From contig DAOVER010000003.1 of assembly GCA_030668875.1 (NCBI GenBank), positions 3,395 through 67,394 on the forward strand: DNA of 64,000 nt, read 5' to 3'. The DNA is from Candidatus Heimdallarchaeota archaeon. GTDB taxonomy: Archaea; Asgardarchaeota; Heimdallarchaeia; Heimdallarchaeales; Heimdallarchaeaceae. A program made the position numbers and the translations under genes. Below are positions 5,117 to 57,851 of this stretch, one piece after another (position 1 is the stretch's first letter; the number at the start of each line of letters is the position of its first letter). Under the pieces are notes generated by a model. The model worked only from the letters and a program-made list of their open reading frames with translations. It did no database searches and was not told the DNA's origin.

Positions 5117-5380
5117 ATGATTAATAAAACCGAAAAAAAAGAAGAGTTAATAAGATTATTCCAAAATCTCAAGGAAATCAAACATTACGCCTTTGAGGAT
5201 GAAGACCTAATCTTGTCCCTCTTGGATAAATTATCTGCATCCTTGTTTGGATCAAAGTATGATTATTGTTCAACACCTGAATACAAAGAACACTGTAAAA
5301 ACATCATCAAAGAAGATCTAAAGAGAGAGAAAGAAAAAAATCTTGTTACAAAAGCATTGATGACTGGAACATTATTCTAA
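5117..5380 (+). CDS. Hypothetical protein
   Basis: ORF track only. Confidence 0.3.
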   Translation: MINKTEKKEELIRLFQNLKEIKHYAFEDEDLILSLLDKLSASLFGSKYDYCSTPEYKEHCKNIIKEDLKREKEKNLVTKALMTGTLF

Positions 5381-5546
5381 ATCAGTCAACTTTCTCTCTC
5401 CCACTCTTTCTTTTTTATTTTTCAAAAAATAATGGATTAATGTTTGTTATCAACTAGCTATTTTTTGTGCCTGTCTTTACTTTTTTCCCTTTTCCCCTTA
5501 AGTAATCTTTAAAATCATTCCTATCTAATGTAGACAATATACTTCA

Positions 5547-6335
5547 ATGGTGAATACCGTGGGAAAGAAAAAATCTACTGAGCAACTTGACAGAGATATA
5601 CAAAACCTGGTGAAGAAGATTTCAGTTATTGAAAAATTCGTTAATGTGGAAAAGAATCAGCAAGATACTCGGGTTGGAAAACTTGAAAAATCCTCTGAGT
5701 CGATAGATAATTACCTCAAGGCTCTTCGTATCGAAGTACAGGCTTTAAATCAGAATTTTGAAAAGGATATAATTGAACATGATGAAAAACTTGCTAAAAT
5801 CCTCGAAGATTTTAGTTCATTCCAAAACACCTTAGATTCTGAGATAGAAAAAGTTGTAGAAAAAGATAAAGTTATGGAAGAACTTCGATCAACAGTTAAA
5901 GAAAAGACTGCTTTGCTTGAAGAAAGAGAAAAAAACCTTGCAAATATGGAAGAAAAGTATTCTAAGGCTTTGGAGAAAATCGCTAAACTTGAGTCTAATT
6001 TAGCTAATATTGAAATAAAATATGAACAAACAAAAACCCTTCAAGAAGAAATAAAGAAAAACTTAGAATCCATTGAAGGAGAATATAGTGATTTCAAATT
6101 GAAAGAAGAACCTATCCGTGCACAAAATGAGAGTATTCGACGTCTTTTAAATGCTCATGATCAAGGAAAGATCTATCTAGCTCTTGTTTCTGCTTCATCA
6201 AATAGTTTATCTCTCGATGAATTAGCTGATGTGACAGGTTCCACCGCTGTTATGCTTAAACCTTCCTTGCTTGCAATGGAAGATTTAGAAGTAATAGAAT
6301 TCAATCCTAGTACGCGAGAAGTTAAATTAATATAA
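5547..6335 (+). CDS. Coiled-coil protein with C-terminal winged-helix-like domain
   Basis: About 200 aa of heptad-like E/K/L-rich sequence, then LALVSASSNSLSLDELADVTGSTAVMLKPSLLAMEDLEVIE. Confidence 0.4.
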   Translation: MVNTVGKKKSTEQLDRDIQNLVKKISVIEKFVNVEKNQQDTRVGKLEKSSESIDNYLKALRIEVQALNQNFEKDIIEHDEKLAKILEDFSSFQNTLDSEIEKVVEKDKVMEELRSTVKEKTALLEEREKNLANMEEKYSKALEKIAKLESNLANIEIKYEQTKTLQEEIKKNLESIEGEYSDFKLKEEPIRAQNESIRRLLNAHDQGKIYLALVSASSNSLSLDELADVTGSTAVMLKPSLLAMEDLEVIEFNPSTREVKLI

Positions 6336-6403
6336 ACTTCATTTATCTACTTTTTTCTATGTCGTTAAAAGTTAATATTTTATATTAAGTTTAGAGATTC
6401 TAA

Positions 6404-7216
6404 ATGGTTACCATGGATAAATACTTTGAAACCAATCTGAAACATTGGAACGAGCTTGTATCTGTTCATACTGATAAGAACTGTTACAACCTTGATGATT
6501 TTATGAAAAACCCTAACTCTCTTCATTCTGTTGAATTGGAAGCTTTGGGAAATGTACAAGACAAAACTCTTCTGCATCTTCAATGTCATTTCGGAATGGA
6601 TTCTTTGTCTTGGGCAAAACTAGGTGCCAAAGTTACTGCAATGGATTTTTCTGATAAAGGAATAGAGTTTGCAAAAACTTTGAGCAAAAAATTAAATATT
6701 CCAACTTATTTTATTTGTTCTAATATTTATGACTTACCTGATGTTTTAGATGAAAAATTCGATATAGTTTTCACTTCTTATGGTGCTTTATATTGGTTAC
6801 ATGATATTCCTAGATGGGCAAAAATTGTTTCCAACTATGTCAAAAAGGGTGGTACCTTCTTCATTGCAGAATTTCATCCCGTGTTCGGTGTTTTTGATGA
6901 TAACAACAAGACAGATCTAGTTGTAAAGTATCCATATTTCGATATTGGTGAACCAATGTATTTTGATGAATGTGGTAGCTATGCTGATCCTAATGCTAAA
7001 CTTAAAAATAATGAAACATATGGCTGGTCTCATAGTTTAAGCACTATAATTAACTCATTGATTAGTGCAGGATTAACAATACAAAGTTTTAATGAATTTC
7101 CTTTTTCCGTTGATTTTCTTCTACCATTTATGGTCAAAGGAAGTGATGGATATTATCGTTTAAGAGATACTGACCAAGAATTACCTTTAATGTTTTCAAT
7201 TAAAGCAACAAAATAA
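6404..7216 (+). CDS. Class I SAM-dependent methyltransferase (small-molecule type)
   Basis: LHLQCHFGMDSL...VTAMDFSD (motif I-like) and DIVFTSYGALYWL; no DNA methyltransferase DPPY/NPPY motif. Confidence 0.55.
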   Translation: MVTMDKYFETNLKHWNELVSVHTDKNCYNLDDFMKNPNSLHSVELEALGNVQDKTLLHLQCHFGMDSLSWAKLGAKVTAMDFSDKGIEFAKTLSKKLNIPTYFICSNIYDLPDVLDEKFDIVFTSYGALYWLHDIPRWAKIVSNYVKKGGTFFIAEFHPVFGVFDDNNKTDLVVKYPYFDIGEPMYFDECGSYADPNAKLKNNETYGWSHSLSTIINSLISAGLTIQSFNEFPFSVDFLLPFMVKGSDGYYRLRDTDQELPLMFSIKATK

Positions 7217-8801: not shown

Positions 8802-10010
8802 ATGGTTGCAATCAAAGTAGTTTACGGTGCTACATGGTGTCCTGGGTGTTCACGATTAATGTCTTATCTAGATGAACACAAGGTTGAATATAAGTGGATA
8901 AACATAGACGATGACCCAGAAGCTCTAGGAATTGTTGAAAAAATTAACGATGGTAAAAAACGTGTTCCCACGGTTGAGTTTACAGATGGAGCTTTTATGG
9001 TACATCCAACCCAGGAGGAAATTGCTAAAAAGATTGGTTTGATCAAAGATATGGGATTAGATTTTCATGATTTGATCATTATTGGAGGAGGATTAGCTGG
9101 TTTAAATTGCGCCCTGTATGCTGCAAGAGAAGGTCATGACATCGTCGTCATAGAAAAAAGTGGAATAGGAAGTCCTAATGCTTATATTGAGATTCTAGAT
9201 GATTATCCGGGATTTATTGACGCAATAGACGGAGTAGAGCTAACGAAAAGATTTTCCAAACAAGCAAAAGCAATTGGTGTTGAATTCCTTACATCTACTG
9301 AAGTAGTTGATATCCTCTTCAGAGGTTCTCATCTCATGGTTAGAACCACAGCTGGAAGAACTATTGGTGGAAAAGCAGTTTTGTCTGCAACTGGTAGAAA
9401 ATATAGAATGCTTCACATTCCTGGTGAAAAAGAATTACTTGGATATAGTGTTCATTATTGTGCAACTTGTGATGGAGTGTTCTATAAAGGCAAAGAAATA
9501 GTGATTATTGGTGGTGGAGTAAAGGCTCACGAAGATGCTATCTTTCTTTCTCGTTTTGCAAGTAAAGTTACGATTGTAGGTAGATCAGATATCTGGAAAG
9601 CCCCCTATGAATTGAGACGTTTAGTCTCCGAAAAAGAGAATATTGAGCTGATAAAAAACCATGAAGCTATAGAATTCATATTTAAGGATAAACACGTTCT
9701 TAATGGTATTAAATTCTATGATAAAAAATCGGATAAGGAAGTAATATTCAAGGCTGATGGAGCTTTTGTTTCAATAGGTTATACACCAGATGTCGGTTTT
9801 GCAGTTGGATTGTTTAACTATAATGAGGATGGTTTCATTGAAACCAATACGAATTTAATGACAAAAACTCCTGGTTTGTTCGCTGCTGGAGACTGTAGAA
9901 CATGCTGTACTCATCAACCAATTTTAGCTGCAGGTGATGGAATTGCATCTGCTGTTATAATACACGAATATCTATTAGAGAAGAAGAAGGAAAAAGGATT
10001 GAAGTCTTAA
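8802..10010 (+). CDS. Glutaredoxin-like domain fused to a thioredoxin-reductase-like flavoprotein
   Basis: N-terminal VYGATWCPGCSRL (CPGC thioredoxin fold); then IIIGGGLAGLNCALYAA (FAD), HYCATCDG redox CxxC, GGGVKAHEDA (NAD(P)) and LFAAGDC. Confidence 0.7.
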   Translation: MVAIKVVYGATWCPGCSRLMSYLDEHKVEYKWINIDDDPEALGIVEKINDGKKRVPTVEFTDGAFMVHPTQEEIAKKIGLIKDMGLDFHDLIIIGGGLAGLNCALYAAREGHDIVVIEKSGIGSPNAYIEILDDYPGFIDAIDGVELTKRFSKQAKAIGVEFLTSTEVVDILFRGSHLMVRTTAGRTIGGKAVLSATGRKYRMLHIPGEKELLGYSVHYCATCDGVFYKGKEIVIIGGGVKAHEDAIFLSRFASKVTIVGRSDIWKAPYELRRLVSEKENIELIKNHEAIEFIFKDKHVLNGIKFYDKKSDKEVIFKADGAFVSIGYTPDVGFAVGLFNYNEDGFIETNTNLMTKTPGLFAAGDCRTCCTHQPILAAGDGIASAVIIHEYLLEKKKEKGLKS

Positions 10011-28799: not shown

Positions 28800-30272
28800 T
28801 CATAAGCATCTATCTACAGCTGAAGAACCCTTTTCATCATATTCTACTTTCGTTACCCAGAGGTTTCTTTCATTGAAAAGTTTCAAAGAAGCAAGAATTG
28901 AACCCCCTATCCAACTTTTGATTAATCTGTTTCTATCAGCTTTAACCTTAATTTCTATATGATTTGGAAGTTTGCTTCTAATATCTGAATAGAATCTTTC
29001 CTTGAAACCTCTATATAATGTGCCTCCACCAATTAGAACAATATTTGATAAAACAACTTTAAGTAAATCTGAATCGCATTTCTGAGCAGATTCTATTACG
29101 GCATCAGTTAGATCTCCAAGTTCTCCTGTTACACTTAAAGGTTCATTTCGGAATAGTATTTCAGGTGCTTTATACAAAATTTCTTCATATTTTACGAAAT
29201 CGTTATTGATGATATTTGCAGACCTTATCTGTCTATCTGTTTTCTGCCAAATCTGTTTTTCTTTCTTTGGGTTTTCAGAAACATAGCACAATTCTTCAGT
29301 AGCATATCGAATGTTGCTATCTATGATACTTTTTTGATTTGGGGTGCTTTTAGAATGAGCGATATGTTTGTTAGTATAGTCTTTCATCAATCTAGTAACA
29401 TCATTTGCTCCTGTATCTCGAATACTAACACTGTGAGTAATTAACCAACCATCGTAAATGGGAAGGATTCTAGTTGCTGAAGCCCCAATATTTACGATTA
29501 ATCCTGTTACATTTCCATCAGCATAAAGAGACAATAACTCTTTTATCGCAAAATACATCTTGGAAACGTTAAATTGGTCAAAAAGAACTCTAGCAATTTT
29601 CCTTCTAATTACCTTTGTTTGGTCATAAACTCCAACATAATCAAGCGCTTCTTCCTCACGAAGAATATTTTTTGCTTTTTCAGGTAACGTAGAATTGTTT
29701 ATCACATCCTTTTTTCCTTTAAGGGAATCAACATATTTGTCCATTTGTGGTCTCTCAAGAATCAGTATTGCTATCTTCGAAGGGTCTACTTCCATTTTCT
29801 CGAAGATATGACTAAAGAAAATCTCAAGATGTTTAAGGTCTATTTTCTCTTCAATAATGTCTGTATCAAGATAAATAGAAACTTTTTTGATAATTTTCTT
29901 CTTTGCTTTAATATTTGAATGTTGAATAAATGTATCTCCTTCTGCAGAATAAAATATTGTAGATTCAAAGATGTACCTCGGTTGATTTTCTCCTGCGAAC
30001 CCTACTTTGGTGAAGCTTGATCCTAAGTCAATTACCATAATTGTTGGGTTCTTTATTTTTTCAACCAATTGGACATTCTCTTCTAGAATCTTTAGACCTC
30101 TCTGTAATTTCATAAGATCAGTATTTTTCAAGAACTTCGAACATTGTTCACAATAATAACCAATTGTGATCCACTTGCGTTGTTCTGTTCCCTTCCTTAT
30201 ATAGACTCTTTGCATAGCTTTTCCACAATGTTTTGGTCTGGTTTTTTGCAGTTTTTCTGGCACTTTTTCCAC
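28800..30272 (-). CDS. Actin-family protein close to eukaryotic actin, with a Cys/His-containing N-terminal extension and altered phosphate-2 residues
   Basis: [23 protein letters not shown] matches actin [43 protein letters not shown] matches [48 protein letters not shown] matches [29 protein letters not shown]. Confidence 0.8.
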   Translation of the reverse strand: [490 protein letters not shown]

Positions 30273-34150: not shown

Positions 34151-34975
34151 TCATTGTTTATCGTCTACATCACTACTGCTATTTCTATGTTTTCTATTAA
34201 CTTGTTGTGCAATTTTAGCTGCCATAGCTCCTGCACTTATCCCCCCATCAATATTAACTACCGCTATTCCAAGTGCACAACTTTGTAACATACTCATCAA
34301 CGCAGTTTCACCCTTTCCTCCAAAACCATATCCTGTTGATATGGGTAGTCCAATGACTGGGATATCAACTAAACCTGCTACAACCGTTGGTAATGCTCCT
34401 TCCATACCTGCAGCAACAATCAGAACATCAACATCCTTCTTTAGTAGATTGTTCAAGGGCTCAAACAAGCGATGAATACCTGCAACACCAACGTCATGGA
34501 TCATAAATACTTCACACCCCATCATCTCTGCAATTGCCTTAGCTTCCTCAGCTACAGGGATATCTGAAGTTCCAGCGGTAATTATACCTATCCTTCCATT
34601 TTCTTTGGATGGAATATAATTATGTTTTTTTATAATACAAAACTTTTTTCCAGTTCCATATTTCACAATAAAATCACTGCTGAATTCTGCTATTTTTGGG
34701 ATGTGTTCTTCTGTAAGTCTTGAGAGCAGTACAATATTCTTTTTTTCAAGAACTTTCTTAGTAATTTCAACAACCGTCTCAGGAGATTTTGTTTCTGAAT
34801 AGATTACTTCTGGAATTCCAGTTCTAGCTTCTCTAAAAATGTCGTATTTAGCAAACTCTTCAATAACCTCAATCTGATTTGAGTTTAGATAGTTCTCTGC
34901 TTCTTCAACTGAAATCTTTCCAGAAGCCAGTTGCTCAAGAATTTCTTTTCTATTCATGATTCTCAGTTCCTTCAT
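34151..34975 (-). CDS. larB: LarB-like nickel-pincer cofactor biosynthesis carboxylase/hydrolase (PurE fold)
   Basis: C-terminal PurE-like IGIITAGTSDIPVAEEA...VGVAGIHRL; overlaps the larC-like gene by 26 nt. Confidence 0.65.
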   Translation of the reverse strand: MKELRIMNRKEILEQLASGKISVEEAENYLNSNQIEVIEEFAKYDIFREARTGIPEVIYSETKSPETVVEITKKVLEKKNIVLLSRLTEEHIPKIAEFSSDFIVKYGTGKKFCIIKKHNYIPSKENGRIGIITAGTSDIPVAEEAKAIAEMMGCEVFMIHDVGVAGIHRLFEPLNNLLKKDVDVLIVAAGMEGALPTVVAGLVDIPVIGLPISTGYGFGGKGETALMSMLQSCALGIAVVNIDGGISAGAMAAKIAQQVNRKHRNSSSDVDDKQ

Positions 34976-36185
34976 AATACATGTTAACCAGCTTAATTTC
35001 TAATTCATTAATTGGGACCTTGGTTTCATTTGCAATACTTGCAATATCCTCAAATTCAGGTTTTACACCTACTATTTCTCCGTCTAACATCCTTTCCTTA
35101 AAACGACATTGGAAACCCTTTCCTTCTACAGTTATCTCCTTTGTGACTACTCTTCTTTCTAGTTCATATCGTCCAAATCTATCCTCTCTAACGCCCAAAG
35201 TACCGAGTTCTTTCATCATGAATTTAGCTAATATTGAGGCTTTATCTTCATCACAAATTACTCTTAAACACCAAGCAGGTCTGTTCTTCTTCATAATAAG
35301 AGGGTAATAGGAAACATCTAGTGCTCCATGTTCCATTAGTTTGCTAACAATTCCTCCTAGTATCTCACCCGATACATCATCTAGATGAGTTTCTAGCATT
35401 GAGAGATAGTGTTTTGAACTTTCTTTATGCAAATCAACGAGAAGTGTTCTCAAAACATTTGACCTTGATGGAATATCTTTATTGCCTGAACCATACCCAA
35501 TACTCTGAACTCTTAGGGGTGGAAGCTGATTGATTTGATTAGTTACTAATCCGCCTAAAAGAATTATTCCTGTAGGAGTCAATAACTCACCATCGACTTC
35601 ATCACTGAAAAATGAATATTCTAATTTCTGAAGAATTTCTAATACAGCTGGAGGTGGCACAGAAACTTTTCCATGTGAAAAAGTAATAAATCCGCTTCCT
35701 ACATTTACTGGAAGTCCATAGATTGGTATATCTAGTAAACCATGCTTTTCTAATAACCAAATTGTTCCAACTATGTCCAGTATTGTATCAACACTTGCAG
35801 TTTCGTGCAAATGTAATTTTTCAATAGATCCTCCATGAACCTTGGATTCAGCTTGAAAAAGCAGCTGTAACATTTGTTGAGCTTTGTTTTTTGCTACACC
35901 AGAAAGATTAAGATTGTCAAGAACCTTCTTTAAAGAATCCATTAGATCTGAAGCATGATGACTCTTCAGATCCTCTTCTATATCTATCACTAAATGAGTT
36001 GAATTAATTCCTTTTTTGAGTATTTTTTCAACTTTTACATTCATTTTTGTGGATAATGTTGTGTTAATTGATGAAACAAGTTCGTCTAAATTTTCCTTAC
36101 TTTCTGTCAGATCTAAGATGCTTGAAAGAAACATGTCTCCAGAGCAACCTGCGATTCTAGGGTCAATAATTAATGCTTTACTCAC
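34950..36185 (-). CDS. larC: LarC-like (DUF111) nickel insertion protein
   Basis: N-terminal IDPRIAGCSGDMFLSSI matches the LarC G(I/C)SGDM motif; about 410 aa. Confidence 0.65.
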   Translation of the reverse strand: MSKALIIDPRIAGCSGDMFLSSILDLTESKENLDELVSSINTTLSTKMNVKVEKILKKGINSTHLVIDIEEDLKSHHASDLMDSLKKVLDNLNLSGVAKNKAQQMLQLLFQAESKVHGGSIEKLHLHETASVDTILDIVGTIWLLEKHGLLDIPIYGLPVNVGSGFITFSHGKVSVPPPAVLEILQKLEYSFFSDEVDGELLTPTGIILLGGLVTNQINQLPPLRVQSIGYGSGNKDIPSRSNVLRTLLVDLHKESSKHYLSMLETHLDDVSGEILGGIVSKLMEHGALDVSYYPLIMKKNRPAWCLRVICDEDKASILAKFMMKELGTLGVREDRFGRYELERRVVTKEITVEGKGFQCRFKERMLDGEIVGVKPEFEDIASIANETKVPINELEIKLVNMYYEGTENHE

Positions 36186-36999
36186 TGTCTATCACATCTT
36201 GAGGTAAAGGAATATTCATGGAACCTTGCCTATACCCTTCTAAATCAATTGTTATGTAATGAAAGCCAAGTCTTCTAAGTTTCATCACTAACATCTCTCG
36301 TTTTTCTTCTTCTAGAAATATTCCCATTTCTGAAATAGGAACTTCTATTCTAGCAATATTTTCATGTGCTCTTAATCTTAATGTTGTGACTCCAAAGATT
36401 TCACGAATAATAATTTCAGCTTGTTCAATCTTCTCTAATGTTGTTTCTGATATTTGTTGACCATAAGGGATTCTTGTTGCTAAACATGTTGATGCAGGTT
36501 TTTTAACAATTTCTAGTTCCATCTTACTTGCGATTTGCTTAATTTCTTCTTTTGTTATATTCAATTCTAAATAGGGACTTTTTATCCCTAGTTCTTTGAC
36601 TGCCTTCAATCCTGGTCTGTAATCAGAGAGATCTGTTTCATTTGATCCTTCTACGATAATATCGTAATTATGACTTTGCACTTCTTTAATGATACTTTGG
36701 ATGATTAATGTTTTACAGTAATAACATCTATCAGGACTGTTTTCAGTAATTTTTGGATGTTTTAAGGGATTTACACTGATTATCCTGTACTTTATTCTTC
36801 TACTTGTTAAATATCCAATAGCATATTGTGTATCCTTAGCTGGTACTAGAGAAGACTTTACAATAACTGGTAAAACGCTTTGAGATGTTTTCCTAGCAAT
36901 TTCTAATAAAACTGTACTGTCTAAACCTCCTGAAAATGCTACAACAATATTCTTATCGTGAAAATATTCTTGAAGCTTATTAATGATCTCATTTACCAT
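36178..36999 (-). CDS. larE: LarE-like PP-loop ATP pyrophosphatase (sulfur transferase)
   Basis: VVAFSGGLDSTVLL (SGGxDS PP-loop); about 270 aa; overlaps the larC-like gene by 8 nt. Confidence 0.65.
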   Translation of the reverse strand: MVNEIINKLQEYFHDKNIVVAFSGGLDSTVLLEIARKTSQSVLPVIVKSSLVPAKDTQYAIGYLTSRRIKYRIISVNPLKHPKITENSPDRCYYCKTLIIQSIIKEVQSHNYDIIVEGSNETDLSDYRPGLKAVKELGIKSPYLELNITKEEIKQIASKMELEIVKKPASTCLATRIPYGQQISETTLEKIEQAEIIIREIFGVTTLRLRAHENIARIEVPISEMGIFLEEEKREMLVMKLRRLGFHYITIDLEGYRQGSMNIPLPQDVIDSE

Positions 37000-37253: not shown

Positions 37254-38003
37254 ATGCATGTCAATGTTATTTGTTATGTGAGAGTCAGTACAGCGGATCA
37301 AACATCAGGAAGAGATACGCAAATTGATGTAATAGAAAAGAAAATCCAATCTTTGGGTTATAGACATATTTTAGAAACCTTCATCGATGAAGATGTTTCT
37401 GGTGATAGCCATATAGAAGAAAGACCAGGATTCAAGAGCCTTCTAAGTTATGTTAAAGAGTTTAACAAAAGCAATCCTGGTAACACTGTGAAGGAAATAT
37501 GGGTTCAGACAAGAGATCGTATATCAAGAAACGTAGATATGCTTGGTTACGCTTCAGTTGTTTTAAGAGCGAATGGTGTTGAAATCAGAGCTACTGAAGA
37601 ATCAGATGAAATGCTGGTTACAAGGATCTACGATATGCTTGGAGAAGAAGAACTCAAGAAATACAAACTGAAAAGAATGTATGGAATCAAAAGGAGAATC
37701 CAAGATAATAAGATAATGTCAAGACCACCTTTGGGATACATAATCAATGATGGAAAACTCGAGATTGATGAAGAAATGCGACCTAAGTTAATCGAGATAT
37801 TCCAAATGTTTGAAGACAACGAAACAATGTCAAAAATAAGTAACAAATTCGAAATACCAAGAAGTACTTTAGCTTATTTGAGGAAGAATCCCATTTATCG
37901 AACTGGAGAATATTATTGGAAAGGAAAGATCGTTTATCAAGTAGAACCAGTACTTAAAGAAGGAGACTTAATAGAACGCGATGAAGACGATTTCTACTAT
38001 TGA
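37254..38003 (+). CDS. Serine recombinase (resolvase/invertase family)
   Basis: CYVRVSTADQ (catalytic Ser), DEDVSGDS...RPGFKSLLSYV, RDRISRN, and C-terminal HTH ISNKFEIPRSTLAYL. Confidence 0.7.
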   Translation: MHVNVICYVRVSTADQTSGRDTQIDVIEKKIQSLGYRHILETFIDEDVSGDSHIEERPGFKSLLSYVKEFNKSNPGNTVKEIWVQTRDRISRNVDMLGYASVVLRANGVEIRATEESDEMLVTRIYDMLGEEELKKYKLKRMYGIKRRIQDNKIMSRPPLGYIINDGKLEIDEEMRPKLIEIFQMFEDNETMSKISNKFEIPRSTLAYLRKNPIYRTGEYYWKGKIVYQVEPVLKEGDLIERDEDDFYY

Positions 38004-42539: not shown

Positions 42540-42623
42540 GACTTACACCTATTAATATTAACAAAATATTGTGCATAAAAAGACAATGGAACCAGAAGAA
42601 AATATCTAGTTCGTTAAATAACT

Positions 42624-45930: not shown

Positions 45931-46665
45931 ATGATAACTATTGATGTTCTATGGGCTACAGCCTTAGGTTATCTTTTAGGATCAATCCCTATCGCTTGGA
46001 TAGTAGTAAAATTATGGTTGAAAATAGATATTCGTACCGTAGGATCTAAAAATGTTGGAGGACGCAATGTTGTTAGAGCTTTCCGAGAACAAGAAAAACC
46101 AAAAGGTTTAGCTTACACAGTTGGAATTATTGAAGCTATACTTGATATGCTAAAAGGTTTCTTTGCAATGTGGTTAGCAGTCTGGATTTCATACGCTACT
46201 GCTGCAGATGGAGTTGTAGATCCATGGGTGATTGCTTTCGCTGGTCCAGCAGCTATTTTAGGTCATAATTGGCCAATTTGGTTGTGGGGTCCTGGAGGAA
46301 AAGGTGTTGCTTCAACACTTGGTTCATTAGCTTTCTTTAATCCCGTATTTATCCCAATCTGGATATTAGCATTCTTTGTTTTTGGATCAGCCATTATGTA
46401 CAGTTCGATAACTTACCTAGTTACCTTCGTAGTAATGGGAGTTATTCTGTTCTTTTGGACATGGATTGTATCTCCAATGGAGATGTTTCTGGTACCTGCA
46501 GATACGCCTGAACTAGGTCTTATTGCAATGGTAACAATGTTTGCAATAACATTAGTTGTACTTTCTCGACAAGGAGAGAACTTCCGTAAGATCAAGAATG
46601 GCGAAGCTAAAAAGATGAAACTTTGGAAAATTTTCAAAGGAAAAGCAGATGAAGCTTTAAAGTAA
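45931..46665 (+). CDS. plsY: PlsY-family (DUF205) acyl-phosphate:glycerol-3-phosphate acyltransferase-like protein
   Basis: GSKNVGGRNVVRAF matches GSGNPGATNVLR; LDMLKGF; GHNWPIWLWGPGGKGVAST matches HIWPVFFGFKGGKGVAT. Confidence 0.6.
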   Translation: MITIDVLWATALGYLLGSIPIAWIVVKLWLKIDIRTVGSKNVGGRNVVRAFREQEKPKGLAYTVGIIEAILDMLKGFFAMWLAVWISYATAADGVVDPWVIAFAGPAAILGHNWPIWLWGPGGKGVASTLGSLAFFNPVFIPIWILAFFVFGSAIMYSSITYLVTFVVMGVILFFWTWIVSPMEMFLVPADTPELGLIAMVTMFAITLVVLSRQGENFRKIKNGEAKKMKLWKIFKGKADEALK

Positions 46666-46705: not shown

Positions 46706-48004
46706 TTATATAGAGTAAAGGATATCAACTGCTTTTTCTATGTTTTTCTCACTTATAGAACAGAAAGCAACTCTAACACCATTCAAACCATTCTTAGTAT
46801 TTTCAAAGGGTACTGTTCCTAATCCTTTTTCTAGAAGCTTATGACTAATTTCAGAAGCTAGTCGTTTACCTTTAATTTGGAAGTAACCAAAAAATCCAGA
46901 GTTAAATCCAACAGGTTGAAGAACAGAACTTTCTCTTTCTCCTAACAGCTTTTTCATAAAGTTATATCTATCTTCTAGGATGCTAATGTTTCTCTTTTTC
47001 TCTTCGTGAACTTGGTTGTTCTTTTCGGAATCATTCAGCACATTACTCATTGCAACTTGAATGCCTTTTGGAGCACTTGAAGTGTTAGTTCTTGCAGCTT
47101 TGGCCATAAGTTCTCTAACCTCCATCTTATCCTCCTCAGAGGTTTCTTCTCCAAAACCTACGGTTACTAATCCCAATCTTGCACCATAAGCAAAATATCG
47201 TTTAGAAACACCATCAACCTTAATCGTAACAACGTCTTCGTTTAATCCTATTAAATAAGGAAAGAGTGAATGCTCAATTACTGAATCTTCATATGCACAT
47301 CCTTCATACGCGTCATCTAGAAATATGGTAGTTGGTATAGAAATTTCCTCTACTATTTCTTGAAACTTCTTTACTTCATCATAAGTTGGGCTTATTCCAG
47401 AAGGATTATTCGGGAAATTTAGATATATTCCGATTTTCTTATCCTCTTTTTCAGCTTTATGAATTTTTGATATCAGATTATCAAAGTTGAGATTTCCTTC
47501 TTTATCAAGTAATTCATAAGTAGATTCTTTAAATTGTAAATTCTTGAAGAAAACGTTGTCAATATTCCTCCATCTAAAGTTGGGTGCAATTATGGTGTTC
47601 CCTTTGTCAAAAAGTACCTGGGCAGAAATCATTAACCCACCTGTTAAGCCCCCACAAGCTGTAATTGGCAAAGTGGAAAAAGTAACCGCTCCTTCTCTAA
47701 GGTAAGCAGGGTAAGTATCAATTGTGTCTTTCCTCCAAGCTTGAATAAAATCATTTACTCCTCTTACATTTGCATAACTGAAAATTTGATCGCCGTTTAG
47801 GTTACTCAATTCTTCAATCAAAGTTGGGAGCACCATAAGTTCTCCATCGTCTTCAGTTGCACTCCCGATAGTAGCATTAATGAACCCGTCCATTTCACTT
47901 GCTTTCCTTTTTGATCTTAAATTCCAAGCTAAAGTTCCTGCAGACAAGTCAACGGTATCTTCTATGTGTTTACCTCGTTTAGAGAGAAAATCTCGAAGAA
48001 TCAT
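46706..48004 (-). CDS. Class I/II aminotransferase (aspartate / aromatic aminotransferase-like)
   Basis: KVDGVSKRYFAYGARLGLV (SxSKxxxxxGxRxG PLP-Lys motif); about 430 aa. Confidence 0.7.
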   Translation of the reverse strand: MILRDFLSKRGKHIEDTVDLSAGTLAWNLRSKRKASEMDGFINATIGSATEDDGELMVLPTLIEELSNLNGDQIFSYANVRGVNDFIQAWRKDTIDTYPAYLREGAVTFSTLPITACGGLTGGLMISAQVLFDKGNTIIAPNFRWRNIDNVFFKNLQFKESTYELLDKEGNLNFDNLISKIHKAEKEDKKIGIYLNFPNNPSGISPTYDEVKKFQEIVEEISIPTTIFLDDAYEGCAYEDSVIEHSLFPYLIGLNEDVVTIKVDGVSKRYFAYGARLGLVTVGFGEETSEEDKMEVRELMAKAARTNTSSAPKGIQVAMSNVLNDSEKNNQVHEEKKRNISILEDRYNFMKKLLGERESSVLQPVGFNSGFFGYFQIKGKRLASEISHKLLEKGLGTVPFENTKNGLNGVRVAFCSISEKNIEKAVDILYSI

Positions 48005-48215
48005 GGGTAAAACGAGGATTAAAGATAGAATTTAAACATTCACCATGTTACATCTTATTAGTATCTATCACATTCACAGTAATCTCTTTCAAAGTATTCT
48101 ACAATCAAAATAGCATGATATCCTTCATGCCCTTTACCTTTTTTCCTGTAACCAAAAAGAGATTTAATGGTAACTGGTGCACAGTAAACAACTGTGTCTG
48201 CAAATCTTATCCAAT

Positions 48216-48553
48216 CTTGCCAGAAGGGTTGTGGTGGGGAGTCATTGCACTCTACAAGGGAGGGCGGAAGTATTTTTACCTGCAGTACTTTTTCTACGGG
48301 TTTATATAGGAAAGTGCGGATAAGGAGGTAGTGCTAGGTGAATACTCACCGACAACTTGGTTCACAGGTGCTCGTTCACCTGTCCCTCAGCTAGTAGTAT
48401 TAGAACCAAGGAGCACTAAGCGCAACTGTAGGATGCAAATGGAGCACTTGCACACTCCGCTTCCTCCTACCCCTAATCATGAACCTCATGATTCTTCCCC
48501 TCAACGCACGTGAGGGAACCCACTTAAACGACGGTCAGAATGCTTCTGGCAAG
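48216..48553. ncRNA. GC-rich structured non-coding RNA candidate with an 11-bp terminal helix; candidate RNase P RNA or SRP RNA, strand and identity unresolved
   Basis: GC content is far above the flanking sequence. cttgccagaag (48216-48226) is complementary to cttctggcaag (48543-48553). Several internal hairpins (caggtg..cacctg, ggtga..tcacc, aatcatga..tcatgatt). Plus strand has a GGAAAGUGCGG element. The small ORFs 48115..48309 and 48331..48513 here are probably spurious. Confidence 0.45.
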
Positions 48554-48558
48554 TTTGA

Positions 48559-49626
48559 CCAAGTTTCATAACGTGCGTTTCCTATGATCCACCATCTTAC
48601 TCCTCACTAACACCACATGATCCAATATACATTACCTCTGATAGCAATTTCACAGATTATGGTTTTACCGGTTCAGGAGCGGAAGAAAATCCTTATCTTA
48701 TTGAGGAATATTATATAATAACAACAGATAACTATGGTATTCAGATTAAAGAGACAACAAAATATTTTGTTATTCGTAACTGCTATGTTGACGCAGGTTT
48801 CACGGGCATTTATATCACTGATGTAGCTGATGGATCAGCAACAATCATTAGCAATTCGTGCACAAACAACAGTAATGGTATCTATCTTTGGGATTCTAGT
48901 AATTCTATTGTTTCCAACAACACGTGCAACAACAACGACTATGGCATCGTTCTTGAGCATTCTGATAATTCTATTGTTTCAAACAACACGTGCAATTATA
49001 ACGACTGGGGCATTTATCTTGCAGGGTCAGGGAGTTTGACTGTTTCCAACAACACGTGCTACAACAACAAATGGAACGGCATTCTCCATTCCTCTTCTAG
49101 TAGCTCGATTATCATTAACAACATATGTAACAATAATGACTATGACGGCATTCGCCTTTCCTCTTCTGAAAGTTTGACTATCATTAACAACACGTGTAAC
49201 AACAATAATGTTTCTGGCATCTATTTTTTCTATTCTGATCTTTGTGTAGTTATTTACAATCTTATACAAGAAAATGAAGTCTATGGAGTCATCTTAAATC
49301 CAGATTCTGATAACAATATATTTCACCATAACACCTTTGTAGACAATAATCTAGGAGGAACTTCACAAGCGCATGATACGGGCAGTAACAATATTTGGCA
49401 TGACTCTGAAACACTTGAAGGCAACTATTGGTCAGATTGGTCAGGAACAGGAAGTTATTCTATTGATGGTTCTGCTGAAGCAATCGATCTCTATCCTCTA
49501 GATGAAGAAGGTAATCCTCCTGTTGTTCCTGAATATGACTCCCTTTCTTTATTTACTCTTCTAATACTGGTATTTCCTTTATTACTCACAATTGTTATCT
49601 ATCGAAAAAGAAAAAAAATAGCTTAA
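48559..49626 (+). pseudogene. 5'-truncated paralog of the beta-helix surface protein 55812..57851. The frame is open from a TGA at 48556-48558 but has no ATG, GTG or TTG before 49036.
   Basis: Hand translation gives ..DYGFTGSGAEENPYLIEEYYIITTDNYGIQIKETTKYFVIRNCYVDAGFTGIYITD.., matching GPTGYNFNGSGTTGDPYRIEDLTIDTE..YFVIQNCWIDAYDVGIYIQN in the intact paralog. Shared TLEGNYWS motif and C-terminal TM anchor. No signal peptide. The 5' end abuts the ncRNA candidate. Confidence 0.5.
48900..49100 (+). repeat. About 66-nt (22-aa) tandem repeats encoding NNTCNNN beta-helix coils
   Basis: attctattgtttccaacaacacgtgcaac recurs at about 48901, 48967 and 49035. Confidence 0.6.
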
Positions 49627-49788
49627 GTAACAACTCTTCCTCCTTTTTTTCCTTTAATATATCTCTAACCACAACGGATAATTTTCAAAATTAATTCTAT
49701 CTTGTTGAATGCAGAAAATTTTCGTGAGAAACATGATCTTTCAATTCGTAATAAGTAAGTTTTTTAGAAACGATGCGTTTTGTGAAGT

Positions 49789-50340
49789 GTGACCAACTCT
49801 GAATTCATTTTCAAAATCACTCTTATTGGTGACGGTGCCGTAGGTAAAACTTCTATTCGTCATCGTTACATGGGTTATGGTTTCAAAGAGTCACATTTGA
49901 TGACTTTAGGTGCAGATTTCAGTGTGATTGATAAGGAATTTAGAGAAGGTGAAACTTGGACTTATCAGATCTGGGACATTGCCGGACAGAAAATATTCGA
50001 AGAAATCAGGTCTAGATTCTATAAAGGTAGTATGGGTGCATTGGTCGTTTTTGACGTGACTGATAAGCAAACACTCCGTAATTGTCTTTCTTGGGTTAAG
50101 GAACTTTATCGTTTTTCAGGTAGTGATGCAATACCTGTTGTTTTATTAGCTAACAAATCTGATTTACGAAATCGCAAAAGTGTTGATATGAAAAAGGCTC
50201 ATAAGTTTGTGAAGATTCTAAATGAAGGAACAGCTAGTTATGGTTTTACTAATCATGTTCTAGAAACAAGTGCAAAAACAGGACTTAACATTGAAACAGC
50301 TTTCAAGTTGCTAGGTGATGCAATCCGGGCAAGATTTTAA
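49789..50340 (+). CDS. Ras-superfamily small GTPase (Rab/Ras-like)
   Basis: G1 LIGDGAVGKTS, G2 Thr in LMTLGADF, G3 WDIAGQ, G4 NKSDL, G5 ETSAK. Confidence 0.8.
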   Translation: MTNSEFIFKITLIGDGAVGKTSIRHRYMGYGFKESHLMTLGADFSVIDKEFREGETWTYQIWDIAGQKIFEEIRSRFYKGSMGALVVFDVTDKQTLRNCLSWVKELYRFSGSDAIPVVLLANKSDLRNRKSVDMKKAHKFVKILNEGTASYGFTNHVLETSAKTGLNIETAFKLLGDAIRARF

Positions 50341-50407
50341 TATTGTAATGATAAGAACGTTTTTGAAAGGAAAAATATTTAGTTAAATTGTTAGGGTAGT
50401 CTTATTT

Positions 50408-50971
50408 ATGGCTTACAAGATTCTTATACTTGGAGATTATGGTGTCGGAAAAACATCTCTTTACAATTACTACAAAGATAATGCTCCTGAAGCACAAGAA
50501 AAACCTGCTTTAAAGGTTAAATTACTTGAAATAAACAGAAGAATAGATGGAGAAGAAACTATCATTCATCTTTGTGATATCCCTGCTAAAGAATTATCTC
50601 CAATTAATAGACCCAAATTATATAAAAGAACTGTAGGAGCAATAATTTTGTTCGATATTAGTCGTCCAGATACTTTTAGACATGCACTATTTTGGATAGA
50701 AGAACTAATGAATTACAATGGTTTTGGTAAAGTTCCTATTGCTTTGCTAGGTAATAAAACCGATATAAGACATTCAAGTGAAAGAGTATTGAACCCCATT
50801 GATGCACAACAATTTATCTATAGATTAAACCGTTCCGCTAAAGCTTCAGGAACTAATATTGACAGCTCCTTCCATGAAATGTCAACAAAAGCAAAAGAAG
50901 CAAAAGGTTTGTTAGGTATTCTTGACCAGCTGATTAGAGCAATTATCAAACATAATGTTGAGAAGAAATAA
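50408..50971 (+). CDS. Divergent small GTPase (P-loop and NKxD present, switch II degenerate)
   Basis: ILGDYGVGKTSL, GNKTD and EMSTKA, but DxxGQ is replaced by LCDIPAKE. Confidence 0.55.
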   Translation: MAYKILILGDYGVGKTSLYNYYKDNAPEAQEKPALKVKLLEINRRIDGEETIIHLCDIPAKELSPINRPKLYKRTVGAIILFDISRPDTFRHALFWIEELMNYNGFGKVPIALLGNKTDIRHSSERVLNPIDAQQFIYRLNRSAKASGTNIDSSFHEMSTKAKEAKGLLGILDQLIRAIIKHNVEKK

Positions 50972-55811: not shown

Positions 55812-57851
55812 ATGAAGTTAGAAGAAGGTAAGGTTTGCAGCAAAATGGGAATAGCAGTTATAATCAGCCTAGCTATACTTTCTTCCTCATTACTGAACTC
55901 TGCTCAAGTTGATATTTATGAAGATCATACTGTCATATTAAATGCCATAACTGATGGTATATACATTGATGATGACTTAGATTTTGGTCCTACTGGATAT
56001 AATTTCAATGGTTCCGGAACAACAGGAGATCCATATAGGATTGAAGATTTAACTATTGATACGGAGAATTCCATAGGAATTTTCATTGCTGATGTTAGTG
56101 TCTACTTTGTTATACAAAACTGTTGGATTGATGCTTACGATGTAGGTATTTATATACAAAATGTGCCCAATGGAAGAGCTAATCTCTACAATAACATTTG
56201 TAACCATATTAAAGGTGGGCATGGGATGATAATAAGCAATGTCGAAAATATTACAATTCAAGAAAATAGTTTCATAAATAATTACTTTGGTCTACATCTG
56301 TATGATACTCCAAATAGTAGAATTCTAAACAACTCGATTGAATTCAACACAGAGGGCATATCTATAGATTTAGGCGTAAATTTAATCATTGCTAATAATT
56401 CAATAATATATGGTACAAATACGGGAATTTCAATCCGTGATTCAAATTACACTGTTTTTGAAAACAACGAGATTGAAAATATTGATGGATATGGTGTTAT
56501 AATAGATAATTGTGATTATGCGAACTATAGCAATAATGTGATAAATGATAATTGGGTTGGAATACAAGGATATTCAGTCAGACACCATGTTTTTACTGAT
56601 AACTTCATTTACCTAAATGATTACTATGGAATAATAATATATTATTTAGGATATACAGGAGTTGAACCAAGCGCAAATAATGTTTTTCATCACAATATTT
56701 TCATAAATAATATAAATGATATTCCACCCTGGTTCAACGTAGAATTTCAAGCATATGATACTTCAATAAATAGTCTCTGGTATGATGAAGCAACATTAGA
56801 AGGTAATTACTGGTCGGAATATAATGGGTCTTTACCTTATTACATAATTGCTGGAAGCTATACATTAGATCTGTATCCGTTAAATGGAACAGATACAGAT
56901 GGTGACAATCTAGATGATTTACAAGAAGAGTACGTCTATTTCACAGATTTATATGATAACGACACTGATAGTGATGGGCTAGATGACTTTGAAGAGATAT
57001 TTGTTTATGATACAAATCCAAACAATTTTGATAGCGATTATGATGGACTAGCTGACGGTGAAGAGATTTTAATATACAATACTAATGCTCTAAATACAGA
57101 TACCGACGCAGATGGTTTAAATGATTATAATGAAGTTGTAGTGTATCTGACTAATCCTCTAGATGCTGATTCTGATGATGATTTGATGCCTGACGGTTGG
57201 GAGGTATCCCATTCTCTTAATCCTCTTGTCGATGATGCTGGAGACGATCTTGATGATGATGGGCTTGTCAATCTAGACGAATTTGAGTATTATACAAATA
57301 CTAATTTAAACGATACTGATTCAGATGGTCTTTTTGATGGGGAAGAGGTTCATACTTACCTAACCAATCCAAAAGATTCAGATTCTGACGATGACAAATT
57401 AAACGACGGTGATGAAGTAAATATCTACTTAACTGACCCAGCTGATTATGATTCTGACGATGACAAATTAAACGACGGTGCAGAAATAAATCAATACAAT
57501 ACAGACCCTCTAGATGCTGATTCTGACGATGATTTGATGCCCGACGGTTGGGAGGTATCCCATTCTCTTGATCCTCTTGTCGATGATGCTGCAGGTGATC
57601 CTGACGAGGATGAATTGTCTAATCTTGAGGAATATGAAGAAGGTACAAATCCACATGATCCAGATAGCGATGGAGATACTTATTACGATGGTGAAGAAGT
57701 TAGAAAAGGTAGAGATCCTTTGGATCCTGAATCTCATCCTTTAGCTGATGATATTCGCAACCAAATTATTGGTGGTTCAGTATTTGGTGTGCTATTTATC
57801 GGTGGTCTTACAATCTATATTCTGATTAAAAAGAGGATTATTAGCTTCTAA
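55812..57851 (+). CDS. Cell-surface right-handed beta-helix protein with calcium-binding thrombospondin-type-3-like Asp repeats and C-terminal TM anchor
   Basis: Signal peptide; NxIxNN beta-helix coils; TLEGNYWSEY; about 10 repeats of DxDxDGLxDxxE; near-identical internal 75-bp duplication (57163-57240 vs 57513-57590); C-terminal hydrophobic segment plus KKR. Confidence 0.6.
   Translation: MKLEEGKVCSKMGIAVIISLAILSSSLLNSAQVDIYEDHTVILNAITDGIYIDDDLDFGPTGYNFNGSGTTGDPYRIEDLTIDTENSIGIFIADVSVYFVIQNCWIDAYDVGIYIQNVPNGRANLYNNICNHIKGGHGMIISNVENITIQENSFINNYFGLHLYDTPNSRILNNSIEFNTEGISIDLGVNLIIANNSIIYGTNTGISIRDSNYTVFENNEIENIDGYGVIIDNCDYANYSNNVINDNWVGIQGYSVRHHVFTDNFIYLNDYYGIIIYYLGYTGVEPSANNVFHHNIFINNINDIPPWFNVEFQAYDTSINSLWYDEATLEGNYWSEYNGSLPYYIIAGSYTLDLYPLNGTDTDGDNLDDLQEEYVYFTDLYDNDTDSDGLDDFEEIFVYDTNPNNFDSDYDGLADGEEILIYNTNALNTDTDADGLNDYNEVVVYLTNPLDADSDDDLMPDGWEVSHSLNPLVDDAGDDLDDDGLVNLDEFEYYTNTNLNDTDSDGLFDGEEVHTYLTNPKDSDSDDDKLNDGDEVNIYLTDPADYDSDDDKLNDGAEINQYNTDPLDADSDDDLMPDGWEVSHSLDPLVDDAAGDPDEDELSNLEEYEEGTNPHDPDSDGDTYYDGEEVRKGRDPLDPESHPLADDIRNQIIGGSVFGVLFIGGLTIYILIKKRIISF

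Follow-up and report, generated by a model that had tools for sequence, protein, structure and literature searches.

Results

A beta-helix gene without its 5' end

The window, by which we mean the whole 64,000-nt stretch of Heimdallarchaeota DNA analysed here, carries on its plus strand (48559–49626) a reading frame of 355 codons without a stop, preceded in frame by a TGA and closed by a TAA at 49624–49626 (Table 1). Its translation is a NosD/Beta_helix protein (Pfam NosD, E 4e-35; Beta_helix, E 3.5e-33) with five TIGR03804 repeats (NCBIfam), and it shares 40–64% identity with more than 100 homologs. A preliminary description of this DNA had aligned the N-terminal part with residues ~55–120 of the paralog at 55812–57851; the alignment, once run, came close to this (residues 21–314 versus 48–357, 35% identity, E 4e-35). 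The 66-nt (22-aa) coil repeats that had been seen by eye in the DNA were recovered by TRF as tandem periods of 66 nt (48892–49068, 2.7 copies) and 69 nt (49048–49211, 2.4 copies). At the C-terminus the protein retains a P-x-x-x-EY motif, a hydrophobic helix and a basic tail as an anchor, and PPVVPEYDSLSLFTLLILVFPLLLTIVIYRKRKKIA lines up with the homologs.

As had been proposed, the frame stays open upstream of 49036 back to the TGA without any ATG, GTG or TTG: the earliest start-type codon is the TTG at 49036 (codon 160), and the only other one in the entire frame is a TTG at codon 206. As the protein is rich in N, S, T and I, this scarcity of start codons is expected from composition and is no anomaly in itself. 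All ten aligned homologs carry a hydrophobic leader of 25–45 aa, a signal peptide, ahead of a VSY(D/N)PPSYSSLTPHD block. None is encoded in the window frame, where homology to the orthologs starts ~6 codons past the in-frame TGA, too few codons for a signal peptide behind a non-canonical start. A tblastn search of the 64-kb window with homolog N-termini matched the known locus only, and the remaining frames upstream of the remnant hold no hydrophobic leader. The 355 codons contain no stop or frameshift, and all columns invariant across the ten homologs are kept.

Table 1. Annotated features around the truncated beta-helix gene (window positions)
Feature	Position	Strand	Remarks
DinB_2-family gene, 3' remnant	48058..48185	-	41 codons and TAA stop; 5' side cut off by the element; translation CAPVTIKSLFGYRKKGKGHEGYHAILIVEYFERDYCECDRY, then stop
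Motif at left end of element	48181..48185	+	ACAGT in the window; ACCGT in Logan contigs L006/L007 from the same population
Mobile element, non-coding, GC-rich, 393 nt	48186..48578	+	GC up to 51.5% versus a window mean of 33.5%; sole GC island in 64 kb
Subterminal inverted repeat, left arm (11 bp, CTTGCCAGAAG)	48216..48226	+	Self-BLAST pairs 48212-48226 with 48557-48543; closes the MFE fold
Two T5 runs (48273-77, 48289-93), then TTTATATA (48301-08)	48273..48308	+	Read from the sequence; identical in the L008 copy
Strongly folding 3' half, several hairpins	48328..48578	+	Terminal ACGTGCGT(T) pairs with AACGCACGT at 48503-11
31 nt missing from the L008 copy	48410..48440	+	GGAGCAC direct repeat on both sides
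Subterminal inverted repeat, right arm (CTTCTGGCAAG)	48543..48553	+	Sequence, fold, self-BLAST
In-frame TGA closing the beta-helix frame upstream	48556..48558	+	Located within the element
Beta-helix surface-protein gene remnant	48577..49626	+	Ancestral codons 38 to end; frame intact; C-terminal hydrophobic anchor and RKRKK; window 48577-50193 versus L011 2078-3676, 80% nt identity
66-/69-nt tandem periods, 22-23-aa beta-helix coils	48892..49211	+	TRF
TTG ORF, 196 aa	49036..49626	+	Called by annotation pipelines; database protein P0011
Ras-like GTPase gene, synteny anchor	49789..50340	+	97% aa identity with its counterpart downstream of the L011 ortholog; 163-nt spacer in both

An intact syntenic ortholog

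Comparison of gene neighbourhoods, sought for an ortholog with a signal peptide, yielded one on the JGI contig L011. This gene is intact, encodes 380 aa, is 80% identical to the window at the nucleotide level and lies next to the same Ras-GTPase gene. It starts with an ATG at 1967 followed by MKNYSKQSKNSIRKFLCVLLIIAVISTLSSVRINATT, a signal peptide, directly before VSYNPP, and thereby has 37 codons more than the remnant. The earlier reading that a signal peptide and about 50 residues are missing thus holds for the signal peptide, but the lost segment measures 37 codons against this ortholog. DNA homology between L011 and the window begins at 48577. Upstream of the L011 gene lies an MFS transporter gene that is absent from the window. 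Rather than being an additional duplicate, the window gene is orthologous to a syntenic gene present in single copy, and with its undamaged frame and conserved invariant columns it does not fit the decaying duplicate that had been offered as one option.

On the far side of the break, the window holds only the end of a DinB-like gene. It aligns with an intact 167-aa gene of L003, L004 and L005 (DinB_2 in L004, Pfam E 1.3e-6) up to ...GGTGCAC(A/C)GT and is divergent beyond. Synteny between the window and four relatives stops precisely at the intervening segment. The same relatives also lose synteny with the window at 42554, where there is no such repeat, indicating that these genomes are often rearranged relative to one another in any case. 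L015 and L016, two contigs that reach towards the segment from the Ras gene, both stop within the beta-helix gene (49333/49335).

The intervening segment is a repeated insertion

Window positions 48181–48578 match positions 5278–5643 of L008, a Heimdall contig, at ~97% identity besides a 31-nt indel, and the flanks of the two copies are unrelated. In L008, the copy (5283–5643) interrupts the gene of a 623-aa TPR protein. This gene is uninterrupted in L010 (86–87% nucleotide identity, colinear), where the empty site reads AATTAATAGT/GATGTT (slash, insertion point), and in seven further homologs. We considered whether flanking sequence shared by the two copies could be a host-gene exon, as the L008 frame looked TPR-like at this point; this was ruled out, the residues being missing in all eight intact homologs. 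The element is likewise missing at the orthologous sites of L010, L011 and L003–L005. It lies antisense to the DinB-like gene, and in sense orientation to the TPR and beta-helix genes.

The boundaries of this insertion are those of the truncation: homology to the L008 copy ends at 48578 and homology to the L011 ortholog starts at 48577, so that the gene is indeed broken where the GC-rich segment ends. The further proposal that an insertion or rearrangement decapitated the gene is supported by the intact L011 ortholog, by the break at the edge of a segment shown by L008 versus L010 to be inserted, and by the DinB-like gene cut at its other edge. Logan contigs of two runs end at 48209 and another begins at 48553, which at k=31 brackets the repeat at 48180–48582. 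Two copies have been sequenced; the multi-copy state in the source genome is inferred from these de Bruijn contig ends. The right-hand contig break implies 4 nt (TTCC) shared past the element, and the continuation of the DinB gene in the relatives does not account for TTCC. As an independent Logan contig reproduces the junction from 48553 onward at 100%, a sequencing error hiding a start codon is unlikely.

Further copies were searched for at several levels. Exact look-ups of the two ORFs within the element (60 and 64 aa) returned no database record, and a six-frame concatenated query against 5.8 billion proteins gave a single match, P0121, which leads back to L008. A 20-mer scan of JGI metagenome contigs produced one chance match only (L009); scans of viral contigs and BLAST against plasmids and phages found no match. 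A covariance model of the right-end domain recovered the two known copies and no others over 200 kb of loci, and a search for the terminal-repeat motif in the window and the loci revealed no further copy. The reciprocal junctions, that is, the beta-helix 5' part joined to the element and the element joined to the DinB 5' part, were not found, the protein search having given just one ORF that reads into the element. Overall, 48186–48578 is a repeated insertion and not a resident RNA gene.

Ends, target motif and fold of the element

Besides the window copy, the motif at the left end recurs as ACCGT flanking the L008 copy and as ACTGT in L011 exactly at the homology breakpoint, and the right flanks of the copies are unrelated. 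The ends of the element, AAACAACTGTG... and ...CATAACGTGCGT, do not form inverted repeats, leaving it without terminal inverted repeats. When the L008 junctions are set against the empty site AATAGT/GAT, GT (possibly CGT) is common to both, which is compatible with zero duplication; at the element any target duplication is absent or at most 2–3 bp. The subterminal 11-bp inverted-repeat pairing is not kept in L008, where a G>T change leaves one uncompensated mismatch.

The RNA fold of the 3' half is stronger than in any of 200 shuffles (z = -4.6), and the L008 copy gives z = -3.7. Folded as DNA, the right end, whose last 8 nt pair with 48503–48511, reaches z = -2.8; the left end forms only a 6-bp hairpin, flank included, and does not resemble it. 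From their sequence, the T5 runs and TTTATATA form a putative archaeal arrangement of terminator and then TATA box, directed to the right end. Rfam 15 gave nothing at gathering scores over the 64 kb, nor at E<=10 on both strands of 47900–48800, and ARAGORN found no tRNA. RNase P or SRP RNA, suspected from GGAAAGUGCGG-like strings, is unsupported, with no Rfam match. Minimum-free-energy and duplex folds of both copies with their flanks, a weak test, contained no bulge-helix-bulge at the junctions. The label of a GC-rich structured RNA element was apt in one respect, as the fold is strong and the segment may well encode a structured RNA, but what carries this fold is a mobile, repeated, non-coding sequence without an Rfam match.

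Among 36 ORFs of the window scanned with Pfam there was no transposase or TnpB, and neither TnpA(Y1) nor TnpB was present at any locus examined. A parent element sharing the same ends was found neither in the window nor in 200 kb of loci. The sole recombinase in the window is a solitary resolvase-type serine recombinase (37254–38003), which does not have IS607 architecture.

Comparison with known small elements

Among the described systems closest to the element are PATEs, known from Haloquadratum as derivatives of IS200/IS605-family transposons that carry no ORF (PMC3119063); one PATE has been shown with IStron ends (bioRxiv 10.1101/2023.11.20.567912). Like these, the element is a few hundred nucleotides long and ORF-less, lacks both terminal inverted repeats and a clear target-site duplication, bears a short motif at its left end only (AC(C/A)GT here, compare the TAM/target TTAC or TTGAT), has folded subterminal sequences, here with the right-terminal 8 nt pairing with an internal complement, and must be mobilised in trans. 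It differs in that the window and loci yielded neither an IS200/IS605 parent whose ends match nor TnpA(Y1) or TnpB, in that its left and right ends lack the family's two similar hairpins, one 11-bp inverted repeat joining the subterminal regions instead, and in being far more GC-rich than its host. We refer to the element as PATE-like, with putative membership of the family.

Classical MITEs, deletion derivatives of DDE transposons, are also small, non-coding and repeated, insert into genes and cause rearrangements by recombination between copies. However, MITEs have their inverted repeats at the extreme termini, whereas here the two arms are set in from the left end by 30 nt and from the right end by 25 nt, and MITEs duplicate a target of fixed length, compared with at most GT or CGT here. 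With the omega-RNAs of TnpB/IscB and with IStrons (IS605/IS607, guide RNAs, group I introns) the element shares a structured RNA-like domain in its right half that is directed outward over the right boundary, a fixed motif adjoining the left end, and insertion within protein-coding genes. In contrast to them, it has no nuclease gene and no group I or other Rfam match, one copy runs antisense to the gene it interrupts, and a guide role is hypothetical. The outcome at the locus has no essential difference from truncation or deletion between IS repeats, a generic prokaryotic route to pseudogenes, in that a 5' end is lost at the repeat edge, the opposite edge cuts the neighbour and synteny does not continue past it.

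Discussion

We consider it probable, at roughly 80%, that the locus holds a recent pseudogene: the 3' 90% of a beta-helix gene, cut from its first 37 codons by a 393-nt element through PATE- or MITE-like insertions and recombination. In this model, a gene for a secreted, membrane-anchored parallel beta-helix protein would have been separated from its ATG and signal peptide by an ORF-less mobile element. As both edges in the window have the look of true insertion junctions, the locus would be most simply explained by two independent insertions, one in the DinB-like gene and one in the beta-helix gene, after which the two copies underwent homologous recombination. Such recombination would have removed or relocated the 5' part of DinB, the 5' part of the beta-helix gene and the MFS-transporter gene. 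Movement of the element itself would be of an IS200/IS605-like (PATE-like) kind, in trans. As the remnant lacks a start codon and a signal peptide, the exported protein cannot be made. Its absence of decay fits a very recent event, and would fit continued function too.

An assembler joining two loci across the repeat would produce the same picture, and the MAG contig may contain such a mis-join at the ~390-nt repeat. The element would then lie once in a complete DinB-like gene and once in a complete beta-helix gene, the flanks of different copies having been joined, and the beta-helix gene would be split by simple insertion with its 5' part on another contig. We regard this as possible, if on balance unlikely. 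The element exceeds short-read length, three independent Logan contigs break at its two edges, both window junctions resemble primary insertion junctions at AC(C/A)GT, and synteny with four relatives stops exactly there. The left contig break, moreover, fits a second copy after ...CACCGT, a possible reading of the beta-helix 5' T-T-V (ACC ACC GT). However, 400-nt repeats are usually resolved by paired-end scaffolders, the loss of synteny at the repeat-free 42554 points to frequent rearrangement among these genomes, and not one of 5.8 billion proteins, including those of this MAG and the Logan assemblies, begins with a beta-helix signal peptide and continues into the element.

Could the insertions instead be silent? 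If the element were an intron-like RNA, self-splicing or enzymatically excised (a mini-IStron, or group-I-like), the beta-helix gene would be functional. The element is indeed in sense orientation in both the TPR and the beta-helix gene and folds strongly as RNA. The last base of its 5' flank is U (ACNGU/), and 3 nt short of the right edge there is a G (..AACGUG/CGU), so that splicing at these points would be in frame with one added codon; ACUGUG, immediately inside the element, can base-pair with the left flank in a P1-helix-like manner. Transposons with group I introns, the IStrons, also occur in Clostridia (bioRxiv 10.1101/2023.11.20.567912). Removing the L008 insertion restores the TPR frame, which is equally true for a DNA insertion. 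Against splicing, group I, group II and other Rfam models remain unmatched at E<=10 on both strands, the junction folds are free of bulge-helix-bulge motifs, the element is antisense in the DinB-like gene and the window contains no upstream exon. A U at -1 and a terminal G are incompatible with restoring the exact wild-type sequence, and the 11-bp closing stem is broken without compensation in L008. Taken together, an intron is very unlikely.

Still less probable is a gene that functions as it stands, whether it is translated from an unorthodox start codon such as ATA at 48568 or ATT, or acts as a silent cassette that has no promoter and recombines into an expressed paralog. The intact 355-codon frame with every family-invariant residue speaks for this, and the element's TATA-like box could drive read-through transcription. 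Yet the ~6 codons between TGA and homology leave no room for a signal peptide, the sole paralog in the window is at 35% identity too distant for conversion, and the truncation point is set by the edge of a mobile element rather than by a repeated cassette boundary. That the GC-rich segment is a resident housekeeping RNA gene, with an old decaying duplicate beside it by chance, is hardly credible: its high GC content, typical of structural RNAs in AT-rich archaea, and its significant fold are outweighed by the conserved protein-coding gene that the same segment breaks in L008, by its absence from the orthologous sites of L010, L011 and L003–L005, by the lack of an Rfam family and by a remnant that is undecayed and syntenic with an intact gene.

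Under the pseudogene reading, the gene loss is ordinary, and the element is an undescribed Asgard mobile element. A more far-reaching and rather doubtful proposal is that it represents a new ORF-less, RNA-bearing transposon of Heimdallarchaeia, in which transcription from an internal archaeal promoter at TTTATATA (48301–48308), preceded by the two T5 terminators, would yield a ~250-nt structured RNA that crosses the right end into the flanking DNA. This RNA might act as an omega-RNA-like guide for homing by a TnpB/IscB-type nuclease in trans, or might mask insertions in genes by working like a ribozyme or an intron, with AC(C/A)GT as the TAM or target.

For annotation, the deposited 196-aa P0011 is artefactual, its start having been placed at the first TTG of a beheaded gene, and the locus is better described as a pseudogene with a mobile element at its flank. 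Filled and empty sites together document a small, site-specific, non-coding mobile element that inactivates genes and sits at a synteny breakpoint. Heimdallarchaeia are the archaeal lineage closest to eukaryotes. Their genomes are repeat-rich (PMC8813620), and literature searches for Asgard MITE- or TnpB-type elements gave no description of MITE- or PATE-type elements in these genomes. If the GC-rich half encodes no guide-like or self-excising RNA, the locus would add another MITE-like element and an ordinary pseudogene; if it does, RNA-guided transposon biology would extend to the Asgard archaea.

A beta-helix gene without its start

As the preliminary description stated, the frame of the 49036 ORF stays open back to the TGA at 48556–48558, without ATG, GTG or TTG before 49036; it comprises 355 codons and ends at the TAA at 49624–49626. 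The first in-frame start-type codon, TTG 49036, opens the only publicly annotated ORF of the locus (196 aa, P0011). Because the entire frame holds only two start-type codons, which fits its Asn/Ser/Thr-rich composition, the 159 start-less codons are unremarkable in themselves. The frame encodes a parallel beta-helix protein of the NosD/PbH1 type; its coil repeats are indeed visible in the DNA (66 and 69 nt), and the proposed homology to the paralog at 55812–57851 was confirmed (35% identity to paralog residues 48–357). In this paralog, the beta-helix domain is joined by ~300 aa of Asp-rich calcium-binding repeats that are thrombospondin-type-3-like, with weak NCBIfam matches to CglD and MtsD, and by a TM helix at the C-terminus. 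Two further runs gave Logan contigs (L015, L016) that begin within the remnant at 49333–49335, which suggests that the C-terminal portion of the gene holds another repeat or a stretch shared with paralogs.

All ten close homologs (55–64% identity) carry a hydrophobic leader of 25–45 aa followed by the conserved block VSY(D/N)PPSYSSLTPHD. In the window, this block begins ~6 codons past the TGA, and no leader-like sequence was found elsewhere in the window. The comparison with related genomes, proposed as a search for a signal-peptide-bearing ortholog, yielded one: the closest homolog, P0015 on JGI contig L011. Window 48577–50193 is 80% identical to L011 2078–3676 at the nucleotide level, and the same Ras-like GTPase follows (97% protein identity, 163-nt spacer in both); the L011 gene is a syntenic ortholog of the remnant. 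Its N-terminus reads MKNYSKQSKNSIRKFLCVLLIIAVISTLSSVRINATT/VSYNPP and its ATG lies 111 nt before the homology start, so exactly 37 codons (start and signal peptide) are absent from the window gene. The reported loss of both thus stands, although its extent is 37 codons, not roughly 50 aa. A divergent MFS transporter gene lies upstream of the L011 gene; it is not in the window.

The remnant has no stop or frameshift in its 355 codons and retains all family-invariant residues and the C-terminal anchor. This does not support a decaying duplicate, the other origin proposed earlier, and freedom from decay indicates that the truncation was probably recent. Lacking start codon and signal peptide, the gene cannot give an exported product. 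The only in-frame candidate starts are ATA 48568 and ATT; translation from these would yield a cytoplasmic beta-helix that lacks a leader and is anchored at its C-terminus, implausible as a functional product.

The adjoining GC-rich segment is a mobile element

The remnant adjoins a GC-rich segment (48186–48578, 393 nt), the sole GC island of the 64-kb window (peak 51.5%; window GC 33.5%), with no ORF, tRNA or Rfam match even at E ≤ 10. A six-frame query of protein databases gave one match, P0121; a second copy of the element encodes the C-terminus of this protein. This copy (L008 5278–5643) matches window 48181–48578 at ~97% identity apart from a 31-nt indel, with unrelated flanks, and splits a TPR protein into 370-aa and ~300-aa ORFs. 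The TPR ortholog in L010 (86–87% nucleotide identity) is colinear on both sides of the site; it and seven other TPR homologs are uninterrupted proteins of 619–636 aa with a single residue at the insertion site. The empty site reads AATTAATAGT/GATGTT and the filled site AATTAACCGT/AAACAAC...CATAACGTGCGT/GACGTT. The direct repeat GGAGCAC borders the indel (window 48410–48440), which resembles the outcome of slippage or duplication within the structured half of the element. In L008, gene calling starts the downstream TPR half (5620–6543) anew at TTG/GTG within the right end of the element; in the window, that TTG (48555) does not share the frame of the beta-helix remnant.

For two sequencing runs, the Logan assemblies stop at window 48209, and another begins at 48553; with k=31 contigs, such breaks mean that the samples contain ~48180–48582 in at least two contexts. 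The right break (48553–48582) implies that TTCC also follows the element in its other context(s). In relatives, the DinB sequence continues as T[C/T]TTCC, which is off by 2 nt and may point to a third copy or a small deletion. In four related MAG loci (aminotransferase ortholog 85–91% identical), colinearity with the window ends at 48119–48182, and there is no copy. The element is a mobile repeated segment and not a resident RNA gene, a reading contradicted by the gene-splitting second copy, the assembly breaks at both edges and the absence in relatives.

The termini have no inverted repeats, and the subterminal repeat (see table) is broken, without compensation, in the L008 copy. The last ~250 nt fold into several hairpins, much more stably than shuffled sequences (z of −4.6 for the window copy and −3.7 for that of L008), the terminal ACGTGCGT(T) pairing with AACGCACGT at 48503–11. 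From the sequence, we infer a putative terminator, promoter and RNA. By analogy, the element may be classed as PATE-like: its features are closer to PATEs, ORF-less derivatives of IS200/IS605-type transposons (PMC3119063; bioRxiv 10.1101/2023.11.20.567912), than to classical MITEs. Neither the window nor 200 kb of related loci yielded a parent element, transposase or TnpB. The evidence lends no support to an intron-like element (IStron, group I, BHB): no covariance model matched, the junctions form no BHB motif, one of the copies lies antisense to the gene that hosts it, and an upstream exon is missing from the window copy.

Features of the element and its junctions (window coordinates)
Feature	Position	Strand	Detail
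DinB-like gene remnant	48058-48185	-	last 41 codons only
Subterminal inverted repeat, 11 bp	48216-26 with 48543-53		30 nt from left end, 25 nt from right end
Two T5 runs	48273-77, 48289-93		left third of element, with subterminal repeat arm
Perfect TTTATATA	48301-08		after T5 runs
Left-junction motif, window			ACAGT
Left-junction motif, Logan contigs of same population			ACCGT
Left-junction motif, L008			ACCGT
Motif in intact beta-helix ortholog, L011			ACTGT, exactly before window-homology start

Junctions and history of the locus

Of the four relatives, three possess a complete 167-aa gene of the DinB_2 family upstream of the aminotransferase gene; the window aligns with it to ...GGTGCAC(A/C)GT and then passes into the element. 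Two different genes therefore flank the element, each without its 5' part and facing away. In the fourth relative (L002), the whole DinB-like gene is gone (~24 nt at 9878–9902 versus ~430 nt in L003–L005), indicating that the spot is unstable in several lineages. The right flanks of the element have nothing in common except possibly GT or CGT. In the left-junction motif, one SNP (48183) separates the window, with A, from the Logan contigs (two runs, same population), with C; the left flank differs further at 46257 in both contigs, at 42689 in L006 alone and at 44716 in L007 alone, and the right flank is 100% identical.

As the same short motif occurs at each, both window junctions resemble primary insertions, which argues for two insertions and subsequent recombination. 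One insertion would have been antisense, into the DinB-like gene, and the other in sense, into the beta-helix gene; the two copies would then have recombined. A metagenome assembler joining the DinB and beta-helix loci through the repeat would yield the same sequence, an explanation we consider less likely. Had a single insertion been followed by a random adjacent deletion, one would not expect the break in the second gene to fall on the motif. Under recombination or mis-join alike, the beta-helix gene is cut off from its start by the element. The intact ortholog in L011 and the break at a mobile-element edge support the earlier proposal that the gene was decapitated by an insertion or rearrangement.

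The window comes from a Heimdall-group Asgard archaeon and has Heimdallarchaeota MAGs as its closest database relatives; it encodes an actin homolog (28800–30272, minus strand; Pfam Actin, 1e-59), two tandem Ras-family small GTPases (49789–50971, plus strand) and a P-type ATPase. Actin homologs and Ras-family small GTPases are eukaryotic-signature proteins typical for Asgard archaea. The four related MAGs are colinear with the window only in a 5.6-kb block between 42554 and 48182; they are mutually colinear on both sides of it, and the window genome is rearranged at both borders. No repeat was seen at the 42554 border. A solitary resolvase-type serine recombinase (249 aa, 37254–38003; catalytic domain N-terminal) sits between a LarB/LarE/LarC-like cluster (34151–36999) and a subtilase; neither a partner gene nor a repeat was found for it.

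The loss of the beta-helix gene is itself ordinary. As a by-product, the analysis documents a filled/empty site pair and a target motif for a small, hitherto undescribed non-coding mobile element of Heimdallarchaeia.
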